Positions 33,311-53,176 of a stretch of 64,000 bases of DNA are shown here, piece by piece. Below the pieces are notes generated by a model. The model was given only the letters and a program-made list of their open reading frames with translations. It searched no databases and was not told the origin of the DNA. The position numbers were made by a program, and so were the translations under genes. The stretch's first letter is position 1, and each line of letters begins with the position of its first letter. The stretch is from Candidatus Latescibacterota bacterium (lineage in GTDB: Bacteria > Latescibacterota > UBA2968), in NCBI GenBank assembly GCA_965205975.1, contig OZ242195.1:1824001-1888000 (forward strand), in the 5' to 3' direction.

Positions 33311-33498
33311 CGGAGAAAAAACGCGAGTGAGTGGTTTACTACTGCGACAGCAGTTCATTTGAACAGAACGCCAATTTGCGGCTAAATGAAGAATTTCCCT
33401 TGACAGACAGAGTGAAATCTTTTTCTTTATTCTGCGAGAAAGTCTTTCATGTAATATTTTTACTCAGACCAGCAACTCTTATATTTATACCAGTTATT

Positions 33499-34083: not shown

Positions 34084-34105
34084 ATCAACAGGAGTAAAAC
34101 AAAAT

Positions 34106-35617
34106 ATGAATAATCAAATCCAACAAAAAGACATCAACAATGCTGCCTGGGCTGCCTGCGACACCTTTCGCGGCGTGATGGATGCCGCCGGATATAAGGA
34201 CTACATCCTCGTAATGCTGTTTCTAAAATACATTTCCGATGTCTGGCAAAACCACTACGCGGAATACAAAAAACGATACGGCGACAACGATGAACGCATC
34301 CGACGCAGGCTGCAGAATGAGCGTTTTGTATTGCCGGATGGCAGCAGCTTTTACAGCCTTTATGAACAGCGCTCTGCTGCCAATATCGGCGAACTCATCA
34401 ACATCGCACTGGAGGCGATTGAAACGGAAAACAAACAGAAATTGGAAGGCGTTTTCCGCAATATAGATTTCAACAGCGAGACAAATCTCGGCAGAACCAG
34501 AGACCGCAACCGTCGCCTGAAAACACTGCTGGAAGATTTCAACAAACCCGAATTAAATATGAGTCCCAGACGGGTTTCAGAGGACGTGATTGGCAACACG
34601 TACATCTATTTGATTGAACGTTTCGCATCTGACGCGGGCAAAAAAGCCGGTGAATTCTACACGCCGCATAAGGTATCCGAACTGGTGGCAAAACTGTGCG
34701 CGCCCAAACCCGGTGCCCGCATCTGTGATCCGGCCTGTGGGTCTGCGGGTCTTCTCATTGAAGCCGCGCGCGTGGTAGGCGACAAAAACTACGCCCTTTA
34801 CGGAATGGAAGTGAACGGCAGCACCTGGGCATTGGCGCGTATGAATATGTTTCTACACGGAGCCGACGCAGCCCGCATCGAATGGTGCAATACACTCACT
34901 GCCCCCGCACTGGTAGAATCCGACCGACTGATGAAATTCAGCAATGTGGTCGCCAATCCCCCATTTTCACTCAATAAGTGGGGCGCGGAAGACGCCGAGG
35001 CAGACATATACAACCGCTTCTGGCGCAGTTTGCCTCCCAAATCCAAGGGCGACTATGCGTTTATCAGCCACATGGTAGAAACAGCTTTGGAAAAACAGGG
35101 ACGGGTTGCTGTGGTAGTCCCACACGGCGTTTTGTTCAGGGGCGGTGCAGAAGGACGCATTCGCCAGCAACTCATCGAAGAAAACTTGCTCGACGCCGTT
35201 ATTGGCTTGCCGGGCAATCTATTCCCCACGACTTCAATACCAGTCGCCATTCTGGTCTTTGACCGCTCGCGCGAACAAGGGGGGGCGAATGAGAACTGCA
35301 AAGATGTCTTGTTTATTGATGCAAGCCGGGAATATCAGGCAGGCAAGAATCAAAATGCATTGCTGGACGAACATATTGAGAAAATCACTACCACTTATAA
35401 AAAACGCCATGATATGGACAAATACGCCCACCTCGCCACCTTTGAAGAAATTGAAGAAAATGACTTCAATTTGAACATTCCGCGTTATGTAGATACCTTT
35501 GAAGAAGAAGAGGAGATTGATATTGATGCGGTGCAACTTGAGATAGACCGGCTGGAAGAGGAGTTGAGCGTGGTGCGAGGAGAGATGGGGAGATTGATGC
35601 AAGGTATCCGCAGATGA
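34106..35617 (+). CDS. hsdM: Type I R-M methyltransferase subunit (N6-adenine)
   Basis: AGEFYTP, DPACGSAG, ANPPF, PHGVLFRG, FNLNIPRYV. Confidence 0.97.
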   Translation: MNNQIQQKDINNAAWAACDTFRGVMDAAGYKDYILVMLFLKYISDVWQNHYAEYKKRYGDNDERIRRRLQNERFVLPDGSSFYSLYEQRSAANIGELINIALEAIETENKQKLEGVFRNIDFNSETNLGRTRDRNRRLKTLLEDFNKPELNMSPRRVSEDVIGNTYIYLIERFASDAGKKAGEFYTPHKVSELVAKLCAPKPGARICDPACGSAGLLIEAARVVGDKNYALYGMEVNGSTWALARMNMFLHGADAARIEWCNTLTAPALVESDRLMKFSNVVANPPFSLNKWGAEDAEADIYNRFWRSLPPKSKGDYAFISHMVETALEKQGRVAVVVPHGVLFRGGAEGRIRQQLIEENLLDAVIGLPGNLFPTTSIPVAILVFDRSREQGGANENCKDVLFIDASREYQAGKNQNALLDEHIEKITTTYKKRHDMDKYAHLATFEEIEENDFNLNIPRYVDTFEEEEEIDIDAVQLEIDRLEEELSVVRGEMGRLMQGIRR

Positions 35618-35740
35618 ACGCAGATAGGCGCAGATGATTTGAAAGCGGTAAGTTAGAGGAGGAGTCAGTTATTTCCATTTTGGAAACAACTGCCCAAGAT
35701 GGCAAAATCAAAAGGGATCCGCAGATGAAAGGACAAAAAC
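35603..35740 (+). repeat. Two CGCAGAT repeat units bracketing a RhuM-like gene fragment
   Basis: ggtatccgcagatgaacgcagataggcgcagatga (35603-35637) and ggatccgcagatgaaaggaca (35715-35735); the sequence between them translates FESGKLEEESVISILETTAQDGK. Confidence 0.75.
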
Positions 35741-36802
35741 ATGAGCAAGAAATCCTCAAAAGATTTGACGATCCGCAGCAGCACAGCGGAATTTCTGATC
35801 TTCACCCGTCAATCTGGCGAAGGTGGCATTGAGGTTCGCTATGAGGATGAGACCATCTGGCTGACGCAGAAGCTGATGGCGGAGTTGTTTGAAGTTACCA
35901 CCCCAACGATTAACGAACATCTGAAAAACATCTTTGACTCCAGCGAATTACAGCGCGATTCAGTTATTCGGAAATTCCGAACAACTGCCGCCGATGGAAA
36001 AAACTACAATACCCAGTTTTACAATCTGGACGCCATCATCTCGGTCGGTTATCGGGTAAACTCCAGGCGCGCCACGCAATTTCGCCAATGGGCAACCCAG
36101 GTCTTGCGCGATTTTGCGATCAAAGGCTATGTTCTGGATAAGCAACGGTTGGAAAATGGCGCGTTTCTCGGCGAGGATTATTTTGAGCGGTTGTTGGAAG
36201 AAATCCGCGAGATTCGTCTAAGCGAACGGCGGTTTTACCAAAAGATCACCGATATTTACGCCACCAGCATGGATTATAACAGGGATGCGCCGACCACCCG
36301 CGAGTTTTTCGCCAGAGTGCAAAACAAACTGCATTATGCTATTCACGGCCATACCGCAGCGGAATTGATCCGACAGCGGGCAGATCAAAAAAAGAAAAAC
36401 ATGGGATTGACCAGTTGGGAAAACAGTCCCAGAGGCAAAATCCTGAAGTCTGATGTGTCTGTTGCAAAGAACTACCTGTCGAAAGAAGAACTGGAATCTC
36501 TCGGGCGTATCGTCAACGCCTATATTGACCTCGCCGAAGACCGGGCACAGCGCAAGATTCCCATGACAATGGAGGACTGGGCAAAACGGCTCGATATATT
36601 TCTCGAGGCTTTTGACCGGCAGATATTGAAAGACAGCGGACAAGTCAGTGCCGAGATTGCCAGAGCCCATGCCGAAAGCGAGTTTGAGAAATACCGAATT
36701 GTTCAGGATCGTTTGTTTGAATCTGATTTTGATAGAGAAACTAAAGAATTAGAACGACAACTGGGTCGGAAAGACGAGGGTTCTGCGAATATCTGCGGAT
36801 AA
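35741..36802 (+). CDS. rhuM: RhuM-family protein
   Basis: ETIWLTQKLMAELF, YNLDAIISVGYRVNS, ATQFRQWA, IREIRLSERRFYQKITDIYA, HGHTAAELI, VAKNYL. Confidence 0.92.
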   Translation: MSKKSSKDLTIRSSTAEFLIFTRQSGEGGIEVRYEDETIWLTQKLMAELFEVTTPTINEHLKNIFDSSELQRDSVIRKFRTTAADGKNYNTQFYNLDAIISVGYRVNSRRATQFRQWATQVLRDFAIKGYVLDKQRLENGAFLGEDYFERLLEEIREIRLSERRFYQKITDIYATSMDYNRDAPTTREFFARVQNKLHYAIHGHTAAELIRQRADQKKKNMGLTSWENSPRGKILKSDVSVAKNYLSKEELESLGRIVNAYIDLAEDRAQRKIPMTMEDWAKRLDIFLEAFDRQILKDSGQVSAEIARAHAESEFEKYRIVQDRLFESDFDRETKELERQLGRKDEGSANICG

Positions 36803-36853
36803 TATTGGACAAGCAAAACCTATTGGCAAAATTACAAGGAGACCGACCCTACG

Positions 36854-37228
36854 ATGAGACAGATGAGAAATTATCGCGATTATTTGATCGAAAAACTTTC
36901 TGACCGCGAGAGAGCCATCTCCTACCTTCAAACGGCATTGGAAGAGCATGAAAAAGATCCGGATAGTGCCGCGTTTTATTACGGATTCAGTGCGGCTGTT
37001 GAAGCCCAAGGCGGTGCGCGAAAATTTGCCCGAAAGACGCATAGCGATCCTCAAGATGTGGTGAATGCCCTGTCAAATAAGGACGAGACGCTGATTGCGA
37101 ACATCATCGCCCAACTGCCCGCGACGCAATGCGAGATTTCTGAAACAGAGAAATTGCAGGCGGTCAAGATAAAGCAGGAGGGCAAAATCAAAAGGTATCC
37201 ACAGATGGACGCAGATAGACGCAGATGA
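36854..37228 (+). CDS. Orphan addiction-module antidote-like HTH protein, C-terminus extended into the repeat
   Basis: YRDYLIEKLSD...YLQTALEE...AVEAQGG resembles HI1420-type antitoxins; ends in repeat-encoded YPQMDADRRR. Confidence 0.6.
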   Translation: MRQMRNYRDYLIEKLSDRERAISYLQTALEEHEKDPDSAAFYYGFSAAVEAQGGARKFARKTHSDPQDVVNALSNKDETLIANIIAQLPATQCEISETEKLQAVKIKQEGKIKRYPQMDADRRR

Positions 37229-37290
37229 AATGTAGGGGCAGTGCCTTGTGCCTGCCCGTTAGATGAATCCGCAGATGAAAGGACAGAGAT
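37181..37290 (+). repeat. CGCAGAT triple repeat, GTAG REP-like hairpin and a further CGCAGAT unit
   Basis: ggcaaaatcaaaaggtatccacagatggacgcagatagacgcagatgaaa; gtaggggcagtgccttgtgcctgccc; atccgcagatgaaaggaca. Confidence 0.8.
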
Positions 37291-37800
37291 ATGGATAAAA
37301 GACTTTTAGACAATCCTACCGAAATGGTCTGTGAGAGCAGCATCTTATATGGTCGAGAAAAGAGGCTTACCTTCGAAGATATTATCACTGGGAATGCCCC
37401 TCACTATTCAGGGCAGATGGACAATATCCCGACCTTCATCACTCGCAAGCGCGGCGATGAGGCCATAGCCTATAACTACACCAATTTAGATCCGATGTAT
37501 GGGACTATAGTCTATGGGGGACCGAGCATGCGGAAAAAGATTTCGCACAAAATTTTGAGAATCAAACCAAATCCTCAACAGATCTATTGGAAGCCAACCC
37601 TGCAGATCGAAATTGACCCCAAGGCCGACACGTCAGATGATCGTGCGAATGAACTTGTGCAGTTGGTTCAATCTTGGGTGGACGAGGGAGATGCTGACGA
37701 ACAGCGAGAAACACTCGAATACCTCATTCACGCTTTGGATGAAGATCGGCCGTCCAACCGTAAACTCTTCCCAAAGGAACTGAAAGGAAAGAGTTGGTGA
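37291..37800 (+). CDS. Hypothetical protein, probable antitoxin partner of the downstream PIN protein
   Basis: Stop overlaps the PIN start (GTGA); acidic C-terminus LVQSWVDEGDADEQRETLEYL..ALDEDR. Confidence 0.55.
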   Translation: MDKRLLDNPTEMVCESSILYGREKRLTFEDIITGNAPHYSGQMDNIPTFITRKRGDEAIAYNYTNLDPMYGTIVYGGPSMRKKISHKILRIKPNPQQIYWKPTLQIEIDPKADTSDDRANELVQLVQSWVDEGDADEQRETLEYLIHALDEDRPSNRKLFPKELKGKSW

Positions 37801-38294
37801 GCCAGACCGTACTGCTCGATAGCGGCCCTCTTAGTATGATAACCCACCCAAAGAGTTCGGGAAAATCCATGCAGTTTAAAAACTGGTTTCAGCAGTTAGT
37901 AGCCAGCGGCGTGACAGTGATAGTACCAGAGATCACAGACTACGAGGTTCGACGCGAGTTGCTCAGAGCACGCAAAATCAGCAGTATTCAGCGACTTGAC
38001 GCGCTTATCACCAAGACCGAATACCTGGCGATCACAACCGAAGCCATGCGCCAGGCTGCAAAGTACTGGGCCAATGCTCGTCAGCAAGGTCAACAAACTG
38101 CAGATAATAAAGCACTTGATGTCGATATGATCCTGGCGGCGCAAGCGACAATGCTGAACCAGACTGACGTGGTTATCGCGACGACAAACGTAAAGCATCT
38201 GGCCCCATTCACTCAGGCGCTGCTCTGGTCCGATATTAGTCCGGAGATTCCGAGCAGTTCAAACGGAGATTTACAGAATGACAGTGAAAAATGA
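37797..38294 (+). CDS. PIN-domain (VapC-like) ribonuclease
   Basis: VLLDSGPL, ITDYEVRRELL, LDVDMILAAQA, IATTNVKHL. Confidence 0.85.
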   Translation: MSQTVLLDSGPLSMITHPKSSGKSMQFKNWFQQLVASGVTVIVPEITDYEVRRELLRARKISSIQRLDALITKTEYLAITTEAMRQAAKYWANARQQGQQTADNKALDVDMILAAQATMLNQTDVVIATTNVKHLAPFTQALLWSDISPEIPSSSNGDLQNDSEK

Positions 38295-39186
38295 ACTATT
38301 GCAGGATGGATGGCGGGAAGTGAAGTTGGAGGATGCTTGTGAAGTTATTGTCAGTCCAGTTGACAAAAAGACTGTTGATGGAGAATTGCCTGTCAGATTA
38401 TGCAATTACACAGATGTTTATTATAACAATACCATTGATTCTGAAATTGACTTTATGACTGCCACAGCCAAACCTCGAGAAATAGAAAAATTCTCGCTTT
38501 TTAAAGACGATGTAATCATTACTAAAGATTCTGAAACACCCGATGACATTGGTGTTCCTACCTATGTCAAAGAAACCATTGACAATCTGTTGTGCGGCTA
38601 TCATTTGACAATTCTTCGCCCAAAGAAACGGACGATAGGGAAATATGTTTGTTATGCCTTGACTTCTCAGAAAACAAAGTATGATTTTTATAGATTCGCT
38701 AATGGGATTACACGCTTTGGATTGACCTCTAAATCTTACAAAAAAATCAAAATCCTACTTCCACCCCTTCCCGAACAAAAAGCCATTGCGTCTTTGCTGG
38801 AAAAATGGGACACGGCCATTGAGAAAACTGAGGCACTGATAGAGGCAAAAGAGAAGCGGTTTAAATGGTTGCTGAAAACCCTCATCAGCGACCAGCAGGA
38901 TAATCCTGAATGGCAAAAGATGAAGTTAGGAGAGATTTGCACATTTGAATATGGTAAGCCGCTCAAAGAACAAGATAGAATCGGTTATCAATACCCTGTG
39001 TTTGGATCAAATGGAATTGTTGGTCGTCATAACGAGTATTTGGTAGCTGGTCCATTTATCGTGGTTGGGAGAAAAGGTTCGGCTGGTACAGTTTCATATT
39101 CAATGAGTAATGGCTTCCCTATTGATACAACATTCTACATAAATTTACAAAGTGGAGAGATTCACCTTCGGTTCTTATATTACTTA

Positions 39187-40234
39187 ACGCGATGTGTGAC
39201 TTCAAAATGTTACGAGGCCGTCAAAATCCAGCGGGTCTCTGTAATTGATGATATTTAGAAAGACACACATGGTATGGGTTAAGATTTTGGTATGCCACAA
39301 GTTTAATAGATGCCAAGCATCTCGCACTTTCATGCGCGCAATATGCAAACGTTCAGTCAATTGTGCGTAAACGGTTTCGACTAATCGCCTTGTGGTTCTC
39401 TTGGCTTTGGGCAAAATGAAAGGGGTGCGTTGTGGATTGTCTTTCATATTGGACTTTAAGGGTGTCTTTATGCGTATGCGGTAGGTATCAAAGCACCTTT
39501 TTTGCCAGTCCAAATCCATAAATGCTGAATCGGCTAAGACGGTTGTATCTCCCATCGTGCCTTCTATGAGTGCGTCTCGGCACTGCTTGTCGTGTCCATA
39601 GGCTTGCAGGATAGGCGCGTGGAGGATAAGGCCATAATCCGTGATCCTCAGACCGCCCTTAAAACCAAAATACGCTTCGTTTTTGGCTGCGCAAAAGCCT
39701 TTTGAAGGGATAGGGAACTCAAAGACGGGCTCACCTCTAAAAATCTTGCGCGTATGTCGCCTTGCCAGTTTACAGATGGGTAAGGGCAAGGTGTCTATGA
39801 TCTGACAGGACGCCTGATGCCCTTCGAGGCAGGCCACAATCCGCTGTTGCATCCACATCTTGACAACCCACAAATTGGCACATTGACGCACAAAGGCCGG
39901 ACGATCTTTCAAAGTGGGAAACCAGTCTATAAAGTGTTCTTTCATCTGCTCATAAAGTTTCTTCTGGCTTGAATACCCCAAAAAGTGACCCACGATTTCT
40001 ATGGTGAGGCATTCCACATCACTTAAACCGGGTTCAAAGCCTGCCCGACGCGGCTTGCCATGCACCTCACAATACGCTGGATAGAGGTCGTCTTCAATAA
40101 AACAGTAGATTGTAATGACAAAAAGGGCTAAATTATACATTGGAGGTTCCTTTCGTTGCATGGCTTCTTGTTTTACGGACAATCCAAGATAGCCGAGGAA
40201 CCTCTTTTTGTCTATTTAAAGTCACACATCACGT
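39187..40234 (-). mobile_element. IS982-family insertion sequence (1048 bp)
   Basis: Terminal IRs acgcgatgtgtgactt / aagtcacacatcacgt; 9-bp target duplication TATTACTTA at 39178-86 and 40235-43. Confidence 0.9.
39202..40140 (-). CDS. IS982-family DDE transposase
   Basis: LSDVECLTI, IIDTLPLPIC, YFGFK, VLADSAF, RRLVETVYAQL; start probably MYNLAL. Confidence 0.88.
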   Translation of the reverse strand: MYNLALFVITIYCFIEDDLYPAYCEVHGKPRRAGFEPGLSDVECLTIEIVGHFLGYSSQKKLYEQMKEHFIDWFPTLKDRPAFVRQCANLWVVKMWMQQRIVACLEGHQASCQIIDTLPLPICKLARRHTRKIFRGEPVFEFPIPSKGFCAAKNEAYFGFKGGLRITDYGLILHAPILQAYGHDKQCRDALIEGTMGDTTVLADSAFMDLDWQKRCFDTYRIRIKTPLKSNMKDNPQRTPFILPKAKRTTRRLVETVYAQLTERLHIARMKVRDAWHLLNLWHTKILTHTMCVFLNIINYRDPLDFDGLVTF

Positions 40235-40511
40235 TATTACTTATTATTGCATGTAGAACTTGATAGAATTAGTGCTCAGTCTGGTGTGCCGGGTCTAAAC
40301 AGAAATGATGCGTATAAAATTTCAATATCAATACCGTCTTCTGTCGAGCAAAAAGGAATCACTCGAACACTAGACGCAGGAAACCGTGAAATTGATCTAC
40401 TCAACCAACTCGCCGAGAAATACCGCACACAAAAACGCGGATTGATGCAGAAGTTGCTGACGGGAAAGTGGAGGGTAAAACCAAACACGAAGGCGAGGAT
40501 GTGAATTTTAT

Positions 40512-40711: not shown

Positions 40712-43700
40712 ATGGCTACATCAAAACGAAATTATTCACAAAGGACACAGAGGATTCTGGACATCCAGAGCTTAAATCAATGTGCATTCCCAGGATGTAC
40801 GAGCCCTTTGGTCGAGCCAGGCGCCGGACAATCAGGCCCTGCTGTTATTAGTGATATATGCCACATTTATGCTTCGAGCCCTAGTGGTCCAAGAGGGCAA
40901 GGGGGTCTCACAGAAGATGAACTAAAGTCTATAGATAACCTGATTTTGCTTTGCCCGAATCACCATAGGGTGGTGGACCGTCAACCTGAAACTTATACAG
41001 CTGAATTGCTCAAACAATGGAAGGAAGAGCATGAAGCTAAAGTGAACAAGCAACGCCCTGCTGGCTTAGATATTATAAGGGAAATCGTTGATCAAAAAAT
41101 TAAGGATGAAACCGATATACTCCGCAAATCTCGCTTTTTTGCCGAGTTTAACAGTACCCTATATTCATTAGAACTCGCAAGAAAGTTGGTAGAAGGAGAA
41201 CTTTCGGTTGGTACTAATGCTGTAAGGAGACAGGCCCTTGCTTGGTGTGTGCGAATCCTATCTGCCAAAAAATTGGATAAAGCAAAAGAATATCTCTATC
41301 ATGCGAAAAAAATAGGTACTTGTGAAGAAATAGATATAGCAGATGCCTTTATATCGTCACAGAAGGGTGATAAAAGCACTGCTCTAAGTGCTCTGACAAG
41401 CATTGATTCACCAATGTCTCTGTCCGCAGCCCTCATAGTTGTCGCAAATCATGATGGGTCACAGGAGGCTATTGACTGGCTAAAGACAGTCGGTATTGAC
41501 ACTGCTGATTTGGCCCCCGAAGGCAAACGGTTTCTTTTGCAGTGTCAGCTTGAACTCGCTGATTGGGAGGCAGCACAAGAATGTCTTGATGTACTGAGTG
41601 ATGACGATTTGCGTGATGCCCCAGTCCTCCATCACTTGAAGGCTATAACACACCTTCTAAGAGCAGTGCCAGATGAACTTCGCTCTAGCATACTTCAACA
41701 ACCACCTTTTGAAGCTGTCAAATTTCCTCTTGGATCAGATGCAGATGCAATTGAAGCCCGCCGACTGGCACACCACCACTTTATAGAGGCTCAAAAAGTA
41801 GCAAATCAGTTAAATTTTCCACAGGCAGCAGCAATAGATAATGAGTACGCACTGTGGCTTGAACTCAAGGATCCCAATGAATCGGACAATGGGCGGAAAC
41901 GGCTGGAAGTTGAACTTAGCGATCCCAAGTCCGCTCTACACCTCGTTCATCTCGGATTTCAATTTGGCATAGAATTAGATACAGCATTAGTCGAACGGGA
42001 GATCGAAAGACAAATTGCTCTCAATGGCAAAACGACCTATGACGCGGCAAAAGCGCGTCTTGCTATCGTTTTCAGGCAACAGACGCCGAAGGAGGCCACA
42101 AATTATATCGCTCGGTACTACGACGAACTTGTCGACCATATTAGTAAAAAATCACTACTGTTTCTCCAAATAGATCTGTTTTCTCAAACTGGACAGATAG
42201 GAAAGGCAAAAGAGTGCTTAGACATCCTTTTAAAAGAAGGACTGCCTGAGATAGATAAAAGCCGGCTTGAGTTCATAATTGCTGAGGCAGAAGGAGAAAT
42301 TGATCCGGTTGAGAGTCTCAAAGAGCAGTTTCAAAAAACAAACGCCCTTAATGATTTGGAAAACCTTGTCCGCAGGCTCAAAGAACAAGATGACTGGAAC
42401 GGTCTTTGCGAATATAGCGAAATTCTGTTTGACAGAACCGGCGAGTTGCGCCAAGCGGAGGATTTAGCACTCGCTTTATACAATACACAAAAGAATGAAC
42501 AACTTATAAAGTTTCTGAAATCAAACAAAGAACTTTTAACGCAGTCCGAACTACTACAAATGCTCTATTGCTGGGCTTTGTTTTTCGAGGGCGATTTACT
42601 CAAGGCTCGCTCCGAATTAAAAAAATTAAATGGTGATTGGGATGATGAGAAAAACCGCAAATTACATCTTTATCTTACAATCTCTTTGGGTGATTGGCCT
42701 GATCTTTCTGAATTTGTAGTTAAAGAGTATCAGAAGAAAGACAAGAGAAATGCTCAAGAATTGATACAAATTGCTCAACTGGCCCTTCAAGTGAACTCAC
42801 CCTATGCAAAAGAGTTGATACAGGCGGCGGCAAACAAAGGGAATAATAATGCTGATGTATTAGGAACCGCCCATTTTCTTGCAGCAAGAGCAGGTTTGGA
42901 AGATGATCCAGAGGTCTCTCAGTGGATTCAACAAGCCGTTGTGCTCTCTGGTGACGATGGACCAATCTGGAAAATGACGCTAAAAGATTTCTGGGATCAA
43001 GTGCCAAATTGGAATCGTCAAGCCTCTGAAATATGGCATCAGTTGAGACGTGGCGAGATCCCGATGTTTCTTGCCGCAGAAGGTACCAATAGGTCCCTTA
43101 GTGATTTGATGCTTTTCCCCGCTTTGGCGAATCCATCAGTAAACGATCCTCGGCGGAGAGTCATCATCCCTGCATATAGCGGTCAGCGACACCCGTTATC
43201 TCTCGATATCAATAGACAAATCGGAATGGATGCAACCACATTGCTCACTTTGAGTCTTTTGAATCTGTTGGACGATGCACTGGACGCTTTTGATACGATC
43301 CACATACCACATTCAACTCTTCGCTGGCTTTTTGATGAAAAACAGAGAGTTGCATTCCATCAGCCAAGCCGGATCAAAGATGCGAAAGAAGTATCTAATT
43401 TATTGAACACTGGTGCGTTAGAAAAATTCTCGCCAAGTACTGTGCCCAACAGTGATTTATCCATCCAAGTTGGAGACGTGTTGGCACAATTTATAGCAGA
43501 GGCAGAAAAAGCGAGCGACAATGACAATACTCAACGCATCGTCGTGCAGCCATCCCCTGTTTATCGGGTTGTCTCTCTGATGGAAGAAGAAGCAGACTTA
43601 CAAGCGCATGAAACCGTGTTGAATAGTTGCCAAGCTATTGTGGAGAAGTTGAGACAAAAGGGCCAGATTACGGCGAATGAAGCACAGAAGGCATGTGACT

Positions 43701-44782
43701 ATTTGCAACTTCACGAGAAACCCTGGTCAAACCAGCCAGATATAGCTGATGGAGCAATACTGTATTTAAGTGACCTGGCTATAGCCTATTTTCAGTATCT
43801 CGGAATATTGGAAAAGCTGCATGCTGCTGGCCTCAAACCTATTATTTCGCCCCAAAAGGTATCTGAAATAAATCAACTCATTTCTTATGAAAATATTTCT
43901 GAAAAGGCCGAAAATACCATAGAACACATACGGCTGGCCGTCAATTCACGGATAGAGACAGAAAAAATACAGATAGGCAGACAATTCTATGTCGATCAAC
44001 CAATAGACAGGTCAATATCCGAACATCCAAGTGTGGGTATTTTCTCATTAGAGAAGGGCTGCAACGCAATCATTATGGACGACAGAGTCCTCAACCAACA
44101 TGCCAATTCCAATCATAGCGACCCACCTATGCCGATATTTTCAACATTGGACCTTATAGATGCACTGGTCTCTAATGGTTCTAAAATACCTGAAGAACGA
44201 CGAGAGTACAGGACCCAACTTCGTAGAGCTGGATACGTATTTATCCCCGTAAGCGTAGATGAACTTGCCCATCATCTTGAAACCTCTGAGGTTGTGGATG
44301 GCAAAGTTGTTGAGACAGCCGAATTAAAAGCTATCCGCGAAAATATTCTTCTCGTTCGAATGAGTACCTGGCTTCAACTTCCAGAAGAAGCATATTGGCT
44401 TGTTGAGTTGCAAAAAACTTTTGTCCATGTGCTAAAAGATCAGTGGAAAGCCGATGCTGACTTTTCGGTTGCCCGGACCCACTCTGACTGGATCTTGGAT
44501 CAAATTGGCATCCATGGCTGGGCACATAGCTATGGCCCTGAGATCGGATCCAACATTGTCAAGACGGGAAGTAGCGCACATATTATGGCGGTGCTCACAC
44601 CCCCAGTTGAAGAACCACAGAAAGTCAGGAAGGAATACTGGAATTGGGTTGAAGGGAGAGTTTTAGCTCCGATCAAAGAACAATATCCCGATCTGTACCT
44701 CGAGCTTGTCGAATGGCACCGAAGATGGATTGCAAAAATTGCTGATATGGATATGATTGAGGAAAGGAAAAATGATGAATAG
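40712..44782 (+). CDS. Large putative defence protein: N-terminal HNH nuclease, TPR-like helical region, C-terminal tandem PIN-like domains
   Basis: CAFPGC...ICHIYASSPSGPR...NLILLCPNHHRVVD (Zn-binding HNH); long all-helical middle; IGMDATTLLTL..L..L..F..IHIPHST, LYLSDLA and IIMDDRVL PIN-like motifs. Confidence 0.75.
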   Translation: MATSKRNYSQRTQRILDIQSLNQCAFPGCTSPLVEPGAGQSGPAVISDICHIYASSPSGPRGQGGLTEDELKSIDNLILLCPNHHRVVDRQPETYTAELLKQWKEEHEAKVNKQRPAGLDIIREIVDQKIKDETDILRKSRFFAEFNSTLYSLELARKLVEGELSVGTNAVRRQALAWCVRILSAKKLDKAKEYLYHAKKIGTCEEIDIADAFISSQKGDKSTALSALTSIDSPMSLSAALIVVANHDGSQEAIDWLKTVGIDTADLAPEGKRFLLQCQLELADWEAAQECLDVLSDDDLRDAPVLHHLKAITHLLRAVPDELRSSILQQPPFEAVKFPLGSDADAIEARRLAHHHFIEAQKVANQLNFPQAAAIDNEYALWLELKDPNESDNGRKRLEVELSDPKSALHLVHLGFQFGIELDTALVEREIERQIALNGKTTYDAAKARLAIVFRQQTPKEATNYIARYYDELVDHISKKSLLFLQIDLFSQTGQIGKAKECLDILLKEGLPEIDKSRLEFIIAEAEGEIDPVESLKEQFQKTNALNDLENLVRRLKEQDDWNGLCEYSEILFDRTGELRQAEDLALALYNTQKNEQLIKFLKSNKELLTQSELLQMLYCWALFFEGDLLKARSELKKLNGDWDDEKNRKLHLYLTISLGDWPDLSEFVVKEYQKKDKRNAQELIQIAQLALQVNSPYAKELIQAAANKGNNNADVLGTAHFLAARAGLEDDPEVSQWIQQAVVLSGDDGPIWKMTLKDFWDQVPNWNRQASEIWHQLRRGEIPMFLAAEGTNRSLSDLMLFPALANPSVNDPRRRVIIPAYSGQRHPLSLDINRQIGMDATTLLTLSLLNLLDDALDAFDTIHIPHSTLRWLFDEKQRVAFHQPSRIKDAKEVSNLLNTGALEKFSPSTVPNSDLSIQVGDVLAQFIAEAEKASDNDNTQRIVVQPSPVYRVVSLMEEEADLQAHETVLNSCQAIVEKLRQKGQITANEAQKACDYLQLHEKPWSNQPDIADGAILYLSDLAIAYFQYLGILEKLHAAGLKPIISPQKVSEINQLISYENISEKAENTIEHIRLAVNSRIETEKIQIGRQFYVDQPIDRSISEHPSVGIFSLEKGCNAIIMDDRVLNQHANSNHSDPPMPIFSTLDLIDALVSNGSKIPEERREYRTQLRRAGYVFIPVSVDELAHHLETSEVVDGKVVETAELKAIRENILLVRMSTWLQLPEEAYWLVELQKTFVHVLKDQWKADADFSVARTHSDWILDQIGIHGWAHSYGPEIGSNIVKTGSSAHIMAVLTPPVEEPQKVRKEYWNWVEGRVLAPIKEQYPDLYLELVEWHRRWIAKIADMDMIEERKNDE

Positions 44783-46703
44783 CCCTTATGTCAAATCTGC
44801 ATTGGCACAAACAGCTTTGGATCTTACTCCTCCACTTATACGTGAGACTTTGCTTAAGGAGTCTAATTTTCGGGATGAGTACAGTCTCACAGCGAATGTG
44901 ACTCTTTCCTTTCCCGATATTGATACTACATTTCACCTTTCCAGCCTGTACGATGCTATCCGAAGCGTTCTTGCAGGTGCATCAGAAAAGAAAGTGATTG
45001 ATACGGAAGGCCAAAAGTGGAGGCTAAAAAACATCGGCAAGAAAGGAGAGCCGCATCTTTCACTTTCTCGCGGCGAAAAGCATTTCTCTCTTCCTGACCT
45101 TGCGACACTTTCTCCAGATAGAGATACACGTCTACGTTTTCTTGATGAAGCTATTTTTGACGTTAATCTTCCCAGCAGTGTATCAGATCAATGGCGTAAT
45201 ATTCTTTCGGAACGCGCCCTCGAAGATGACGAAGTTGATACGTGTCTTAGTGAGTTTCGCAATACACCAGTTGAAATGGTACGTGCCATACAGAGTGAGA
45301 TTATGGCGGGACAAAGTAACTTGTCCTCGCTGGTTCCTTCTTCCCATAGATATTTTGAAAGACTTGTGGGCGTATATGACGACAGTCCTACCATTCGCGA
45401 TTATGCTGCCAGTGGTGGTAGAAAGCTCTTTGCTCAACTGTCTGCGTGGCGACCCTATGACGGCTTTTTATTTAGCCTCCTTCTGTCATCACACACCTCG
45501 CTAACAGATGAAATCAATGTCGATCAGTTGAGTAGTGAAGATCTTGTACGCGCCTACGATTTTTTGGCAAAACATGGTGATAGAATTTCGCAGTTGGGTG
45601 CTATTGAAGTCGGCTTGCGCGTTCTTCCATCAAGGCCTGAGATAGAACAGGGTCTTATCAGTCTCATTGAGCAAATTCGTGATGACGATATTGAGGGACA
45701 AACAAGCGATTTCAAACTACTCTGGGCATTGTTTTGCCTTGTGGATGGAGAGCTATCAAGGACCCGTCTTTTGTCTTCGAAACCACCTTTTTATAGAAGA
45801 TTAGCAGCCTTATCACAGGCTGCATTGATTCATCGCCAGCATGTGAATTTACCTATTGATGTTGACATTGACCGCTTCAGTAAATGGACTTTTAGCAATC
45901 GTGGACAACAATATTACCTCCAATCGCTGGTCGATATGCGTTTGGAACCGCGCTGGGATCCCTATCTTGCAATGGCTTCGCAAATGAAGGCATATTTCTT
46001 TGGTCGCATACTGAGCGCAGCAAAGAAATACGAGCAGAATATAAAGGGTAATCAAATATACGATTTAGTACTCGCAAACAAGACCGGAAGCCCTCAGCCT
46101 TTTGGTGATGACCCTGAGACATGGTTACCTGGTCCATTAGAGGGAGAGGAAAAAACGCAAAAGAATTTGCCAGCCGAAATCGCAGAAACAATTGAGACAC
46201 AGATCCGGAAAGATGAAGTAGGACCATTGTCGTTTGTTGCGCTTGTTAATTTCGCCTTGATTTTTCCTTTTAGTACAGATCATGCTGAATTGGCGGCAAA
46301 AGCATTACAGCGTGCTAACTATCGAATTCCGGACATAGAAGACAGATCGCAGCTTGTTATTATATTAGATGGACTGGCTAAGGTTGCCGCCGTTTCGAGG
46401 AGTTTAACACTCGCGGATGAATTGCAAATCCTTGTACGTAGATACAGGCATGATGCTGAGTATGAGTTGTCCATACAAGAGGTCATAAGAATCTGCCTCT
46501 TAGCCGCTGCAAGTCGTTCAGATCTGAGTGAATGGACAAAATTTGTCGGTGACTGGCTAACGGAACTCGCATTTGGCGATTTGAAAGACGAAGAAGCACA
46601 AGGACTCCATTTGTGCTTAAATAGTCTTTGTCATGCAGTTCCTGAGCTATGGGTATCCTGCGGAAGAGCCGATGCCGCTCTATCCGCTTTGATAAACAAA
46701 TGA
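44772..46703 (+). CDS. Uncharacterised 643-aa helical protein translationally coupled to the HNH-TPR-PIN gene
   Basis: Long ORF; ATG overlaps the upstream stop; RBS gaggaaagg; no catalytic motif recognised. Confidence 0.8.
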   Translation: MMNSPYVKSALAQTALDLTPPLIRETLLKESNFRDEYSLTANVTLSFPDIDTTFHLSSLYDAIRSVLAGASEKKVIDTEGQKWRLKNIGKKGEPHLSLSRGEKHFSLPDLATLSPDRDTRLRFLDEAIFDVNLPSSVSDQWRNILSERALEDDEVDTCLSEFRNTPVEMVRAIQSEIMAGQSNLSSLVPSSHRYFERLVGVYDDSPTIRDYAASGGRKLFAQLSAWRPYDGFLFSLLLSSHTSLTDEINVDQLSSEDLVRAYDFLAKHGDRISQLGAIEVGLRVLPSRPEIEQGLISLIEQIRDDDIEGQTSDFKLLWALFCLVDGELSRTRLLSSKPPFYRRLAALSQAALIHRQHVNLPIDVDIDRFSKWTFSNRGQQYYLQSLVDMRLEPRWDPYLAMASQMKAYFFGRILSAAKKYEQNIKGNQIYDLVLANKTGSPQPFGDDPETWLPGPLEGEEKTQKNLPAEIAETIETQIRKDEVGPLSFVALVNFALIFPFSTDHAELAAKALQRANYRIPDIEDRSQLVIILDGLAKVAAVSRSLTLADELQILVRRYRHDAEYELSIQEVIRICLLAAASRSDLSEWTKFVGDWLTELAFGDLKDEEAQGLHLCLNSLCHAVPELWVSCGRADAALSALINK

Positions 46704-46760
46704 TCCATCTAACCAGAAAATTCGTTCGCCCTTGCATCTAACGGCTTTCCCTCTGGACCT

Positions 46761-48193
46761 GGTGTTGTCCCTATATTAGTTGAAATAGTAGAGGCTCCAA
46801 TGTAAATTGGATACAGCAGATTCAACCGTGAAAACGCTGTGTCCACAACCAAAGGAGCCCGTGATGAAAAAAGTATCGCACAAAGCCCCCAAAGTCAAGG
46901 CAATCCACAAAGACGATGCAACGTCCCAGACACCCACACAAGAAGAACTGGACATACTGGATACCCGCATCGCGCTGATCCAGGCCTTGATCCCATTAGG
47001 ATTAGACGCCGTGGCAGAAGAATTGCAGGAGGAAGTGAGCCGCTTGGCCGGGGACAGATACAGTCGCAAAGACACCGAAAACCCCAATCGTCGGTGGGGC
47101 AGTCAACAAGGGTCTGTGTATCTGGCCGATCAAAAAGTGCCGATCTCTGTACCGAGGGTACGTAATGTGGAGAGGGATGAGGAAGTCTGCCTTGAGACCT
47201 ATCATCACCTCCAAGTTCCCAGACGTATGGATGAAGGGCTGCTCCTTCGCGTGATCAAAGGCATTGCGACTCGGTCTTATCAAGCCTGCGCTGAGGCGAT
47301 CCCGAAAGCCTTTGGGCTGTCCTCATCAACGGTATCGAGACGTTTTATCAAGGCGTCGGCACAAAAGCTGAAGCAGTTCCGTGAACGCTCTTTAGCGCCG
47401 TATGACTTGGTTGCCCTCTTTATAGATGGCAAGACCTTTGCAGACCAAGAGATGATCATTGCTCTGGGCGTGACGATAGAAGGGCACAAAATCCCAATAG
47501 GCTTTGTCCAGGCTGCCACTGAGAACGAACGCGTCTGTCGGCAGTTTATACAGTCTCTCATCAATCGTGGCTTGGTCTATCACAAGGGCCTGCTGTGTCT
47601 TATTGACGGCTCAAAAGGCTTGTATGCTGCCCTTACAAAGGCATTGGACGGTTACGTGGTCATCCAACGTTGTCAGTGGCACAAGAGAGAGAACGTGCTT
47701 TCCTATCTGCCTAAAAATAAACAGGATCAGATCAAAAAGGCCCTACAAAATGCCTACGACCAGCCCACCTACAAAGATGCTAAAATGGCACTCTTATCCC
47801 TCAAAGCGGAATTGGCCTTGATCAACGAAGACGCGCTCTCCAGCCTTGAAGAAGGAATAGAAGAAACCCTTTCCTTGCATCGCCTCGGACTGATGCCGCA
47901 CTTGAAGCAGTCCTTTCGTACGACAAACTGCATTGAGTCCATAAACTCAATGGTCGCACAAATCACACGAAATGTGAAGAGATGGACAAACTCGAATCAA
48001 CGCAGGAGATGGTTAGCCACCGCTCTGCTGGACATTGAACCCCGATTGCGAAGGGTCAAAGGCTACAAAAGCCTACCCAGGCTCAGGCGCGCACTGCACA
48101 AGCACTTGAAACTCGATACAGACTGGCAAGACCCAATTGCTGCGGATTGAAAACACCGGCCTCAATTATTTCAACTAAATATAGGACTTGACC
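46761..48193 (+). mobile_element. IS256-family insertion sequence (about 1433 bp), no target duplication
   Basis: IRs ggtgttgtccctatattagttgaaata / tatttcaactaaatataggacttgacc; flanks ctggacct and agacaact differ. Confidence 0.85.
46864..48150 (+). CDS. IS256-family (mutator-type) transposase
   Basis: VPRVR, LSSSTVSR, LFIDG, LIDGSKGL, QRCQWHK, RTTNCIES; RBS aaggag. Confidence 0.92.
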   Translation: MKKVSHKAPKVKAIHKDDATSQTPTQEELDILDTRIALIQALIPLGLDAVAEELQEEVSRLAGDRYSRKDTENPNRRWGSQQGSVYLADQKVPISVPRVRNVERDEEVCLETYHHLQVPRRMDEGLLLRVIKGIATRSYQACAEAIPKAFGLSSSTVSRRFIKASAQKLKQFRERSLAPYDLVALFIDGKTFADQEMIIALGVTIEGHKIPIGFVQAATENERVCRQFIQSLINRGLVYHKGLLCLIDGSKGLYAALTKALDGYVVIQRCQWHKRENVLSYLPKNKQDQIKKALQNAYDQPTYKDAKMALLSLKAELALINEDALSSLEEGIEETLSLHRLGLMPHLKQSFRTTNCIESINSMVAQITRNVKRWTNSNQRRRWLATALLDIEPRLRRVKGYKSLPRLRRALHKHLKLDTDWQDPIAAD

Positions 48194-48674
48194 AGACAAC
48201 TGGCGAGCATCTCAAGTTCGCAATATCGGTGTTATCGAAGGCAATAGGCCAGCGACAGATAATGATTGGGAAACGATTAAAAGAGGTGGAGACGCAGCCA
48301 TAGTGAGGTGGATCAGAGGCCAAATGAGGGGAAAGACTTGCACCATTGTTTTGGTAGGAACAAACACCGCGAATCGCAAGTGGATCAACTATGAAATAGT
48401 AGAATCGTGGCGTCAAAAAATGGGGGTGGTGGGCATTCATGTCCATGGCCTGAAGGATAGATATGGTCGCACTTCAGCAATGGGCTATAATCCCTTCGGC
48501 TACTTCACATTTCCAAGAACGGTAACAGCAATGTCAAGCGTTGTGCGGTGCTATAACCCACCGGGCCGGAACAGCACAGAGAGGTATAATTGGATTGCCA
48601 ATAATCTTTCAGCGATGGTTGAAGAAGCAATCGACATCCGCAAAAAATTCCAAGCAGGAAGGTATGTCAAATGA
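48192..48674 (+). pseudogene. 5'-truncated Thoeris ThsB-like TIR-domain (DUF1863) gene
   Basis: Frame from the IS end reads PDNWRASQVRNIGVIEGN...NDWE...WIRGQM..KTCTIVLVG..TANRKWINYEI..SW...MGVVGIHVHGLKD; an in-frame TGA lies in the IS end; start and first beta-strand are missing. Confidence 0.85.
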
Positions 48675-49117
48675 ACAACAATGAATGTATCTTGAAGCAC
48701 CTGGAGTTTATTCAGGATATCGTAAACCGCTTGGAATCCAATGCCTTCCTTCTCAAGGGGTGGAGCCTTACCGTCCTTGTCGGAGGATCCTTATTGATGG
48801 TGAGACTTAGGCCAGACCAACCTCTATTAGCATTGACACTTCTCGTACCTGTTTTCGGGTTCTGGATGCTGGATGCATATTTTTTGTGGCAAGGGCGGTT
48901 GTTTCGAGATGAGTACAACCGGGTGCGTAAACAGGATGAGACCGACTTTGCCCTGGATCCGATGCAACATAAGCATAAACCGAAACGTAGCTGGTGCTCA
49001 ACATTTTTCTCCGGTACGCCGTTCATTTTTTATGTTGTGGAAATTGGGTTTGTTTCAGTTCTCGTTTTTTTTCTATGGATGGCAGGCATCCCGGCACCTG
49101 AGAATTGCTTCCCATGA
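48671..49117 (+). CDS. Small multi-TM protein coupled to the TIR gene (putative membrane effector)
   Basis: ATGA overlap with the TIR stop; HLEFIQ.IVNRL..NAFLLKGW, FWMLDAYFL..GRLFR..Y; three hydrophobic segments. Confidence 0.8.
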   Translation: MNNNECILKHLEFIQDIVNRLESNAFLLKGWSLTVLVGGSLLMVRLRPDQPLLALTLLVPVFGFWMLDAYFLWQGRLFRDEYNRVRKQDETDFALDPMQHKHKPKRSWCSTFFSGTPFIFYVVEIGFVSVLVFFLWMAGIPAPENCFP

Positions 49118-49981: not shown

Positions 49982-52900
49982 ATGCCTACCTTCCCCTTCA
50001 GCGAAAAACATCTCTCCCAAATCCCTGCCCTGCAGCAGCTAATTAACATGGGCTACCGGTATCTCCCCCCCGAGAAGGCAATGGTAGAACGCGGCGGTCG
50101 CGCCTCCAATGTTCTGCTGGAAAACATCTTGCGCGATCAGCTTAAAAAAATAAACCGCATTCACTACAAAGGCGGTATGTATCTGTTCAGCGAGGAGAAT
50201 ATTCAATCCGCCATTCAGAAAATCAAAAATGTCCAATACGATGGCTTGCAAAAAACAAATGAAGTGATCTACGACCTGATAACGCTTGGCACATCGCTTG
50301 AACAAACAATTGAGAGCGATTCCAAAAGTTATACCCTGAACTATATCGACTGGAAAAATCCCGCGAACAATGTGTTTCACGCCACAGCGGAATTTTCTGT
50401 TGAACGCCCCCGCAGCATGGAAACCGCAAGACCGGATATTGTGCTGTTTGTGAATGGCATTCCCCTTGTTGTAATGGAGTGCAAAGGCCCCGATGTAGAT
50501 GTGGATCAGGCCATATCTCAGACAATTCGCAATCAGGGCGAAGAATATATCCCGCGTCTTTTCATTTACGCGCAGTTATTGTTGGCTATAAACAAAAATG
50601 AGGCAAAGTACGCAACAGTGGGAACTTCAAAGGCGTTCTGGAGTATTTGGGACGAAATGGAAGATTCTACTCACGAAGTGAATGCCAGCATCAATAAACC
50701 CCTTTCCGCTGAAGACAAAGACGCCCTATTCCGTGGCGATTTTGCCCTATCAGAATCGCACTTTGCCGCGCTTGAAAGCACAGGCGACCGGCTGCTTACG
50801 GAACAGGATAAATGTCTTCACAGTTTATGCCGCCCGGAACGTCTGTTAGAACTGATTTACGGCTTTATAGTCTTTGACCTCGGTATCAAAAAAATTGCCC
50901 GATACCAGCAGTTCTTTCTCGTTCGTTCCGCAATGAAGCGCATCAAACAAATAGATAATACAGGACGCCGCCAGGGCGGCATTGTCTGGCACACACAGGG
51001 GTCTGGAAAATCCATCACAATGGTTATGTTGGCTCGTAATCTGGCTCTGAACTCCGAACTGAATAACTCCCGAATGATTCTTGTTACAGACCGCAAAGAC
51101 CTGGACAAACAACTCGGCAACACCTTCGCGGCCTGTGGACTGATCATGGAACGAGCGACAACCGGACGGAATCTGGTCAAACACATCAAAAACGAAGTAG
51201 GCATCATCACGACGCTAATCAATAAATTTGATACGGCACTTTCTGCTGAAAAATACGTTGATGACTCAGCGAATATTGTCGTCCTCGTAGATGAAAGCCA
51301 CCGCACAAACTTCGGCTCTCTCGCAGCGCGTATGAGGCAGATGTTACCCAATGCCTGTTACATCGGTTTCACGGGTACGCCATTGCTCAAAAGAGAGAAG
51401 AACAGTTTTGTTAGATTCGGAGGTCTTATTGAACCGCACTATTCCGTGCGACAGGCGATCAAAGACAAGGCAGTGGTTCCCCTGCTGTACGAGGGGCGAC
51501 ATGTGGAGATCGAGCAAAACAAAATCGCTGTTGATTTGTGGTTCGAACGCCATACGGAAAACCTGACAGACGAACAAAAAGCCGACTTAAAAAGAAAATA
51601 TTCCCGTGCAGATGCACTCAATCAGGCAGATCAGATCGTCTATATGTGCGCGTTTGACATAAGCGAACACTACCGCGCAAACTGGCAGGACACCGGATTT
51701 AAGGCGCAACTTGTAGCACCCAACAAATCGACTGCCCTGAAGTATCGAGAATTTTTCAGTGAGATAGACGCTATTTCATCAGAGGTCGTTATCTCTCCCC
51801 CGGATACGCGAGAGGGACATGAGGAGGTAGGCGAAGAGACGGACGAGGTCAACGCGTTCTGGAACAAAATGATGGCTCGTTATGGTTCCGAAGACCAATA
51901 CAACAAGCAAATCATCGCGCAGTTCAAACACGCGGATGACCCGGAAATTTTGATTGTAGTAGATAAACTCATCACGGGATTTGACGCGCCTCGCAATACC
52001 GTGCTCTATCTGTGCCGCAAGTTGCGCGAACACACATTGCTCCAGGCTATTGCCCGGGTTAATCGCGTACACGAAGATAAGGAATTTGGCTATGTCGTTG
52101 ATTATGCCAACGTGCTTGGTGAACTGGATAAAGCACTGAACGAATACGACGCACTTGCGAATTTTGACGGAGAGGACCTCGCAGATGTCCTGATCTCCAT
52201 CCAGGAAGAAATACAAAAATTGCCGCAACGTTACTCAGACCTCTGGGACATATTCAAAGAAATTAAACATTCCCGAGATGAAGAACGCTACGAAGTCCTG
52301 CTATCCGATGACGCATTGCGGGAAGATTTTTATGAACGCCTCACGGAGTACGGCAAGACCCTCGCCATCGCGCTTTCATCTGAGCAGTTCATTATGCAGA
52401 CCAAAGAGGCTCAACTCAAACGCTACAAAAGCGACCTCTTACGTTTTGAGAAGCTGAGAAAGGCTGTCAGACTGCGCTACGCCGAAGCCATTGATTACGG
52501 CAATTATGACTCCCGAATTAAAAAGTTGCTAAACACGCATATTCAGGCAAATGAGGTTACCCAATTAAACGCCCCCGTGGATATTTTTGATGACAACGCC
52601 TTTTCTATGGTCAGAGAGACGCAAGGCATCTATCGCACCCGAAATACAGCGGCAAACGCCGACCAGATCGCGCATGCAACCAAACGCAAGATTACCGAAA
52701 ACATGGACAAAGACCCCGCTTTTTATGAGAAATTCTCAAAACTCATTCAGGAGGCAATCGACGATTTCAGGCAGCAACGGATATTAGCCCTGGATTATCT
52801 GCAAAAGGTGAGCGAGATTCGAGATAAGGTCGAAAGCACACAACGCGACGATGTACCCGACGAAATTCGCAATAACGGTGAGGCTTGTGCATATTTTGGC

Positions 52901-53176
52901 GCAATTAAACCCTGTTTCTCAAAAATTGACATTGGTGAAAGCCAGACCGATAACATCGCAATAAAAACAACGCTTGCCATTCAAACCGCGATAGATAAAA
53001 ATTGGAAGGTAGATTTTTGGAATGATGGTGACGCGCAAAATGCCGTAAAAAATGAGATTGATGATTTCTTCTACGATGTGGTGGAAGAAGTGCATGGCAT
53101 TGATCTATCGTCAGAACAAATGGACGAAATGATCAGCCAAACCATGAGGATCGCCAAATTCTGGAGACCCGCTTAA
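49982..53176 (+). CDS. hsdR: Type I R-M restriction subunit
   Basis: RPDIVLFVNGIPLVVMECK nuclease motif; HTQGSGKS, DESHR, GFTGTP, TGFDAP, QAIARVNR helicase motifs. Confidence 0.97.
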   Translation: MPTFPFSEKHLSQIPALQQLINMGYRYLPPEKAMVERGGRASNVLLENILRDQLKKINRIHYKGGMYLFSEENIQSAIQKIKNVQYDGLQKTNEVIYDLITLGTSLEQTIESDSKSYTLNYIDWKNPANNVFHATAEFSVERPRSMETARPDIVLFVNGIPLVVMECKGPDVDVDQAISQTIRNQGEEYIPRLFIYAQLLLAINKNEAKYATVGTSKAFWSIWDEMEDSTHEVNASINKPLSAEDKDALFRGDFALSESHFAALESTGDRLLTEQDKCLHSLCRPERLLELIYGFIVFDLGIKKIARYQQFFLVRSAMKRIKQIDNTGRRQGGIVWHTQGSGKSITMVMLARNLALNSELNNSRMILVTDRKDLDKQLGNTFAACGLIMERATTGRNLVKHIKNEVGIITTLINKFDTALSAEKYVDDSANIVVLVDESHRTNFGSLAARMRQMLPNACYIGFTGTPLLKREKNSFVRFGGLIEPHYSVRQAIKDKAVVPLLYEGRHVEIEQNKIAVDLWFERHTENLTDEQKADLKRKYSRADALNQADQIVYMCAFDISEHYRANWQDTGFKAQLVAPNKSTALKYREFFSEIDAISSEVVISPPDTREGHEEVGEETDEVNAFWNKMMARYGSEDQYNKQIIAQFKHADDPEILIVVDKLITGFDAPRNTVLYLCRKLREHTLLQAIARVNRVHEDKEFGYVVDYANVLGELDKALNEYDALANFDGEDLADVLISIQEEIQKLPQRYSDLWDIFKEIKHSRDEERYEVLLSDDALREDFYERLTEYGKTLAIALSSEQFIMQTKEAQLKRYKSDLLRFEKLRKAVRLRYAEAIDYGNYDSRIKKLLNTHIQANEVTQLNAPVDIFDDNAFSMVRETQGIYRTRNTAANADQIAHATKRKITENMDKDPAFYEKFSKLIQEAIDDFRQQRILALDYLQKVSEIRDKVESTQRDDVPDEIRNNGEACAYFGAIKPCFSKIDIGESQTDNIAIKTTLAIQTAIDKNWKVDFWNDGDAQNAVKNEIDDFFYDVVEEVHGIDLSSEQMDEMISQTMRIAKFWRPA

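Follow-up and report, generated by a model that had tools for sequence, protein, structure and literature searches.

A candidate split TPR-GreA/B-C-PIN receptor with an HNH head in a Type I restriction-modification locus of Candidatus Latescibacterota

The window analysed here, the 64,000 nucleotides (nt) from position 1,824,001 to 1,888,000 of contig OZ242195.1 of a Candidatus Latescibacterota bacterium, carries two adjacent genes, A and B, within a Type I restriction-modification (R-M) locus. These genes encode the two halves of one protein of about 2,000 residues that is fused in many other bacteria. Judged from its sequence, the pair belongs to the TGP family (TPR-GreA/B-C-PIN), within which it forms a rearranged branch whose architecture is already in Pfam. 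A role in defence is very likely, and it is probable that the pair constitutes a split TGP-related immune receptor that works by oligomerisation and leads to an abortive infection driven by its HNH nuclease.

Gene organization

Genes A and B are found as the initial annotation described them, as open reading frames of 1356 and 643 amino acids (aa), both intact and co-oriented, with the stop codon of A (44780-44782) overlapping the start of B (Table 1). An AGGA-type ribosome site lies ahead of B, in which a second ATG is present at 44775. A contig from a second study (43768-46760) bridges the junction with 15 substitutions and no gap and, therefore, the split between A and B is not an assembly error. 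Pieces of both genes are covered by contigs from RNA runs, which does not in itself show transcription, and the scan for promoters and terminators gave a result at chance level. The stretch that holds the pair has a GC content of 43-45% and belongs to the lower-GC part of the R-M locus.

It is clear from the relatives that the two genes belong together. The relatives of B comprise 985 proteins of 353-1126 aa and 153 proteins of 1127-3215 aa, with 7999 candidates scored for either size class, and in all 120 fused relatives listed of the 153 the A-like part precedes the B-like part. Among the best 80 of 175 metagenome loci, A is directly upstream of B or fused to it in all 68 that are informative (58 split and 10 fused), where informative means at least 200 nt of upstream sequence, which 12 of the 80 lack, and where some loci are near-duplicates. 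The same junction is found on Agrobacterium and Methylophaga plasmids at approximately 30% identity. A FastTree phylogeny of B was built with 11 earlier proteins and 139 of 150 representatives, after discarding 11 whose length was intermediate or that of a fragment. Before the removal of one partial row this set held 117 split and 33 fused rows; after it, the fused or split state changes 25 times across 149 rows, 32 of them fused, a count that has no shuffled baseline. Therefore, fusion or fission at the A/B junction has recurred. The co-occurrence of homologues as a pair, which the initial annotation had proposed to check, is borne out by these data, while its view of the partner as a separate regulator or scaffold gives way to one in which B is the C-terminal third of a protein that is fused in many relatives. 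A programmed frameshift from A into B was considered and rejected, given that the overlaps in relatives are of 4, 8, and 11 nt and the frame relation is not constant.

Domain architecture

Three Pfam families score above their cut-offs, PF24407 and PF20698 in A and PF24388 in B, and the pair displays every feature of the double-PIN branch, namely a helix-turn-helix (HTH) upstream of a double PIN, two PIN repeats, and a permuted GreA/B-C domain. The last of these lies in B, which had initially been described as having no recognizable motif. PF20698 (PIN-TPR-GreABC) is matched by two stretches of A with 42.2 bits versus a cut-off of 27.8, while no match to a GreA/B family was found in A with Pfam, and aa 757-830 are helical in the model. 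The body of A, initially described as about 700 aa of TPR-like sequence, appears helical, but the TPR label is weak in A itself (TPR_19, E 0.06) and rises above cut-off in the relative P0207.

The AlphaFold model of A aa 747-1356 (46 rows, predicted local distance difference test (pLDDT) of 84.6, predicted template modelling score (pTM) of 0.79) contains two PIN-like repeats linked by a 36-residue helix. In a wide fold search with this model the top five rows are PIN structures, with a Z of 9.2 to 1o4w, and all four PIN-like motifs are present. The rows of the PIN family span the model from residues ~80-90 to ~397-452, yet only 102-130 residues are aligned; the PIN of SMG5 is an example, with 105 of 111 residues aligned at 2.7 Å. 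Because the matches reach both ends of the region with so few residues aligned, one PIN fold would combine the N-half of repeat 1 with the C-half of repeat 2. This composite site fits the conservation observed in 93 rows, where D840 is kept in 89 (the other four have Glu), E876 and D1123 in all, and D1124 in 91. By eye, the same two halves resemble those of the canonical single PIN in the accessible alignment of Kaur 2021 (PMC8195603; 40 rows), and D1123/D1124 match its DD-x-x motif. The other PIN fold has D1020 in 86 and E1052 in 67 of the 93 rows and an acid at 922/923, and it lacks an acid after the fourth strand; the window copy has a serine at Asp1020, which the 15 closest other rows keep and 11 other rows also lack. 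The model suggests, then, that the double PIN is internally swapped, with a single intact site of RNase type (D840, E876, D1123, D1124) and a second site that is degenerate, rather than having the two independent PIN RNase sites proposed initially. Coevolution was evaluated by mean-field direct coupling analysis (208 rows with duplicates, effective number 146) and was noisy: the top 60 pairs include 3 between the N-half of repeat 1 and the C-half of repeat 2, 8 between the C-half of repeat 1 and the N-half of repeat 2, 5 within repeat 1, 2 within repeat 2, and 14 between the two C-halves. A second look at the fold search with the PIN model added nothing.

For B, the AlphaFold model (116 rows, pLDDT 95, pTM 0.93) has a six-stranded domain at aa 44-106 followed by an alpha-solenoid, which represents approximately 530 aa more than in canonical TGP proteins. 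The PF24388-type domain is found in most of the relatives tested, either split or fused. The wide fold search with B returned only generic helical repeats, at aa 451-643, and about 1,100 residues of the A and B complex are helical repeats. Conservation peaks at aa 261-420, within the solenoid, where a polar cluster is found (D270, E279, R342, R343, Q384, D388, R390, E392, and R412) and where many Arg, Asp, and Glu residues do not vary at all. The prediction of a complex between B and the rim-helix region of the host RpoC gave a score of 0.00 and a mark of 0.32, which speaks neither way.

No P-loop or STAND nucleoside triphosphatase (NTPase) family was found in A or B with Pfam, PADLOC, or NCBIfam, in agreement with the initial proposal of a sensor-effector defence candidate lacking such a domain. 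The NCBIfam scan gave no match at all for either protein, Foldseek searches with the models of A(747-1356) and of B returned nothing at E ≤ 0.001, and profile searches of A3 and A4 against PDB sequences gave nothing significant. A single match at 0.75 in the ESM Atlas was uninformative.

The N-terminal head and its replacements

All the residues of the zinc-binding HNH motif set recognized initially in the head are present (C24, C29, H51, N76, C81, H84, H85, and D89). Compared with known structures, the head matches the Cap5-type HNH/SAVED nucleases, the best match being 9om4 (E 6e-19). The HNH effector models of PADLOC, including SAVED-HNH, match only residues ~3-115 of A, and the Pfam match to HNH_2 is weak. 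Nearly all full-length relatives carry a head domain or a short motif at this position: in a redundant set of 176 A-type proteins, 76 have HNH, 37 have the motif as detected by pattern, and 63 have something else. The HNH head is present in 58 of the 120 fused relatives listed, and a relative of the same genus has TIR in its place. Other heads identified by Pfam in relatives are TIR, SIR2, calcineurin-like, SMEK, PNP, and hydrolase, which agrees with the swapped N-terminal effectors expected from the outset and with the variable effector on a constant core that is found in canonical TGP proteins; the range overlaps the TGP list in the accessible part of Kaur 2021. In the fused relatives P0183 and P0205 an extra Schlafen/AlbA domain is found C-terminal to the B region, as a second effector position.

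In part of the relatives a small gene with such a motif is paired with A. Upstream genes were surveyed in 89 loci, of which 55 have enough upstream DNA, and a Bell-like N-terminal helix motif is found upstream of A in 22 of these (16 by pattern and 6 by eye). It is carried by a gene of ~65-75 aa with a hydrophobic N-terminal helix and a C-terminal motif, roughly TQTIxSGDxSTNxQAGRDI, that recurs at the N-terminus of A; in locus L096 the small gene is fused to A. In the same survey the ~70-aa gene is found in none of the 21 HNH loci and none of the 12 loci with other effectors, and the window copy, with its HNH head, has no adjacent Bell-type gene. A single weak match to EAD10 was obtained in the relatives (E 0.055). 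By analogy with the Bab/Agp layout described below, the motifs may be amyloid-like and the small proteins Bell-like. Amyloid templating, TIR, and Cap5-type HNH all depend on clustering and, therefore, signalling by the core most likely proceeds through oligomerisation, with no NTPase involved.

A different matched motif, RD[IV][RK]DSTI[IV]Q-like, is found in locus L072 both in a 105-aa membrane protein (5794-6111) and at the N-terminus of A, which starts at 6114. Similar N-termini are present in several fused relatives (P0135, P0136, P0151, P0160, and P0167).

Distribution and genomic context

The family comprises 1,279 clusters at 50% identity and was not found in the phage collections searched. 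The close relatives are from entries titled Candidatus Latescibacterota, one of them a genome of the same genus, and the spread is patchy: within the genus, 4 of 20 other genomes have a match, and within the phylum 12 of 168, although two matches are no more than short remnants. Of 11 close-relative loci, 7 are inside Type I R-M loci. For 20 long and more distant loci, neighbours within 3.5 kb were sorted by our own classification, and clear defence neighbours are found in 8 and ambiguous ones in 5.

In the window, the placement of the pair inside a Type I R-M locus is as initially annotated, with hsdS and hsdM upstream and hsdR downstream, where hsdM and hsdR are presumed to be such from their motifs (Table 1). 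The insertion sequence (IS) in the second hsdS is polymorphic, given that it is missing from contigs of two runs, in which 39177 is joined to 40235 with 9 shared letters. Immediately ahead of gene A, 54 nt of the 3' end of hsdS occur twice (40427-40480 and 40642-40695, 85%). In G074, a genome of the same genus, this slot is occupied by an unrelated HNH gene together with a last segment of 123 nt matching the end of B. The duplication and the content of this slot suggest cassette exchange by recombination at the end of hsdS. One contig of the X4 run joins the end of B (46758) to the 3' end of hsdS (40395), with 19 letters between and 54 letters on the short side; this joint may reflect a cassette in circular or tandem form, or the arrangement of another strain.

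Several further observations concern the neighbouring genes. An antitoxin-like open reading frame of 169 aa and a small PIN toxin gene form a coupled pair (37291-38294), and the middle of the former weakly resembles a stretch of DNA polymerase III alpha (E 5e-7). In loci L003 and L026 the membrane gene directly follows B and the TIR gene is absent. A chimeric open reading frame (49248-49860) fuses ~49 codons from the start of an AAA_14 ATPase gene, which L003 and L007 have intact, to a HicB-like gene; the short frame that follows it we take to be HicA-like. A short GCAGAT-rich repeat, perhaps a repetitive extragenic palindromic (REP)-like element, is found in both orientations between the genes of the R-M locus (33225, 35608-35637, 37199-37228, and 49935-49965).

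Table 1. Coordinates of the gene pair, its domains, and the neighbouring features in the window.
Feature	Position	Strand	Details
Gene A	40712..44782	+	1356 aa: HNH head, helical TPR-like body, HTH, interleaved double PIN, helical tail
HNH nuclease, zinc-binding, Cap5-type, swappable effector (predicted)	40712..41056	+	aa 1-115; C24/C29/C81/H84, H51, N76, H85/D89 intact
Helical, TPR-like constant region	41084..42979	+	aa ~125-756; conserved in fused relatives
HTH upstream of double PIN, PF24407 (HTH_upst_double_PIN)	42980..43189	+	aa 757-826; E 6.9e-24, 84.4 bits vs cut-off 27; helical in model
PIN repeat 1, N-half	43211..43417	+	aa ~834-902; D840, E876; PF20698 best stretch 840-878; predicted partner is C-half of repeat 2
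C-half of repeat 1 and N-half of repeat 2	43418..43966	+	aa ~903-1085; predicted second, degenerate PIN fold
PIN repeat 2, C-half	43967..44236	+	aa ~1086-1175; D1123, D1124, R1125, N1128
Gene B	44772..46703	+	643 aa from first ATG: small beta domain and alpha-solenoid; C-terminal third of fused form
Permuted GreA/B-C domain of B	44901..45089	+	aa ~44-106, six strands and one helix; PF24388 (Permuted_GreAB-C) aa 53-94, E 1.6e-9, above cut-off
Upstream part of Type I R-M locus	33331..40504	+	hsdS, hsdM, rhuM, antitoxin/PIN pair, second hsdS broken by IS
IS interrupting second hsdS	39185-40236		22-nt inverted repeats
IS256-family element, then ThsB-like TIR gene and membrane protein gene	46759..49117	+	IS at 46759-48195; TIR gene 5'-truncated; PADLOC PDC-M50B/A
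hsdR and YgjP-like protease	49982..53886	+	closes R-M locus

Comparison with known systems

Cap5 and the Avs/STAND receptors follow the same logic of sensor, oligomer, and effector. The pair shares the HNH type of Cap5 (HNH-SAVED) of CBASS, but has no SAVED domain and no cyclase in its locus, and it differs from Avs/STAND receptors by the absence of a STAND NTPase. The PIN systems DS-3 and DS-5 of DefensePredictor have other layouts, being set apart by the accessible part of their descriptions only.

Although the initial annotation left the system unnamed, its domains are in Pfam as TPR-GreAB-C-PIN. Kaur 2021 describes effector-TPR-GreA/B-C-PIN proteins, mostly as stand-alone genes, with a predicted engagement of RNA polymerase, and a table in that paper lists canonical members with an HNH head as well as one fused protein of 2304 aa with SIR2, TPR, and two PIN domains; these statements, like those on Ibarlosa 2024 (10.1101/2024.11.07.622273) below, apply to the accessible portion of each paper. 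The pair is like canonical TGP proteins in its variable N-terminal effector (HNH, TIR, SIR2, and PNPase among others), putative TPR-like body, PF20698-type PIN, and GreA/B-C-related domain, and differs from them in the two genes of most members, the HTH, and the duplicated, interleaved PIN. Canonical proteins have GreA/B-C between the TPR and the C-terminal PIN of one chain and about 1,100-1,400 aa in total, whereas here a permuted form comes after the PINs, in a separate subunit, and the total is about 2,000 aa with the additional solenoid. The canonical proteins are mostly stand-alone, unlike the pair, which has a downstream partner or fusion in every informative locus. In domain order and in gene number, then, the pair departs from the canonical type.

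Ibarlosa 2024, the one experimental study that the literature search brought up, reports that Agp, a canonical TGP member, triggers abortive infection through an amyloid motif that it shares with Bab, that point mutations in its GreA/B-C abolish both defence and amyloid assembly, that Agp has no defence independent of Bab, and that its PIN mutant is unstable; phage sensing by TGP proteins and the role of PIN are stated there as open. The relatives of the pair resemble this system in having a TGP-type receptor and a small helical effector gene that shares a short motif with the N-terminus of the receptor. However, Agp is a single gene with a single PIN, whereas in the window copy HNH is fused and a Bell gene is absent, and Bab has 109 aa against ~70 aa for the small protein. 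The paired motif and Bell-like genes, the predicted swapped PIN site, and the recurrent fusion or fission are what the present analysis adds. In the literature searched, which lacked bioRxiv supplements so that absence from print is not shown, the two-gene double-PIN form is neither described nor tested; the ParA preprint and the Lipocone paper, both returned by the search, contain nothing that bears on it.

Proposed mechanism and alternatives

The properties described above are consistent with the following mechanism. A and B would reassemble as the heterodimer of one TGP-related immune receptor, which would sense phage infection and oligomerise, a mode of activation that is rather likely, and in doing so switch on the N-terminal HNH nuclease, which would destroy DNA and abort the infection by killing the infected cell. 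The PIN site would act as an RNase in an accessory or sensing role, and the killing would not be mainly its work. By analogy with Agp, the trigger may be a hijacked or altered RNA polymerase read by the permuted GreA/B-C domain of B, for which the chances are somewhat below even.

Several points weigh against this interpretation. The domain order is unlike that of Agp, and the trigger of Agp need not carry over. Within B, conservation is lowest in the GreA/B-C-like block (0.36 versus 0.51-0.54 at aa 261-420), and GreA/GreB are absent from the whole-protein fold search of B, in which this part was barely tested. The swapped topology comes from one model and from the end-points of ranges, with coevolution too noisy for confirmation, and for the motif common to A and the small gene both identity with BASS11 and amyloid formation are presumptive. 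With regard to the defence role, the core is not covered by any model in PADLOC 2.0, 4 of the 20 long loci have mobile genes only and 3 have neither, in a comparison that has no control set, and no experiment on the double-PIN branch was found in the literature.

Given that the conservation of B peaks in the solenoid and is lowest in the GreA-like domain, the trigger is uncertain between RNA polymerase and a ligand bound by the solenoid. It is quite conceivable, though short of an even chance, that the same system has this other trigger, the TPR-like body and the solenoid binding a phage protein or small ligand directly, as in Avs, and GreA/B-C being structural. The polar cluster at aa 261-420 and the large number of helical-repeat residues in the complex favour this, while the presence of the GreA/B-C domain in most relatives, and the loss of defence and of amyloid assembly in the Agp point mutants, oppose it. 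It is unlikely that the PIN RNase is the main weapon, with B as its inhibitor in the manner of a toxin-antitoxin pair and the HNH head as backup: the acids of the composite PIN hardly vary, most rows are split, and PIN cleavage as a first-line defence is proposed in Kaur 2021, but the fusion of A to B in many lineages does not resemble a labile antitoxin, Agp gives no defence when its effector is missing, and a head domain or motif is present on nearly all full-length relatives.

The surroundings of the pair raise two further alternatives. Its frequent position inside Type I R-M loci in close relatives would fit a guard of the R-M system that fires when a phage inhibits it, but any R-M gene is found within 3.5 kb in only 4 of the 20 more distant loci, and the slot in G074 is filled by an unrelated HNH gene together with the last codons of B, as in a cargo hotspot, which makes such a guard very improbable. 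That the window copy is decaying, non-working cargo is likewise improbable; the two flanking IS insertions, which break hsdS and thsB, and the serine at Asp1020 point in that direction, while the frames are intact over 6 kb, no residue of the HNH or of the composite PIN has been lost, both genes are free of gaps in a strain from another study, and 11 other rows also lack Asp1020. A split receptor acting through its HNH head is the interpretation retained as probable.

Conclusions

The discovery value of this pair is limited by the fact that its architecture is already in Pfam. Nonetheless, the branch is a natural dissection of a TGP-type protein, with the GreA/B-C-like part on its own gene and separable from A. 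The HNH head offers a direct biochemical read-out, and the motif-bearing relatives share the core, which allows a comparison across swapped effectors. A broader and more tentative proposition, to which we give roughly one chance in three, is that the branch represents a widespread, NTPase-free, two-subunit receptor in which one subunit would read RNA polymerase or a phage ligand and the other would carry a single swapped RNase site, the oligomer firing either a fused enzyme or, through an amyloid motif, a ~70-aa protein that attacks the membrane. If true, this would be a second, architecturally distinct class of amyloid-signalling receptor in bacteria, with the smallest Bell-type executioner.

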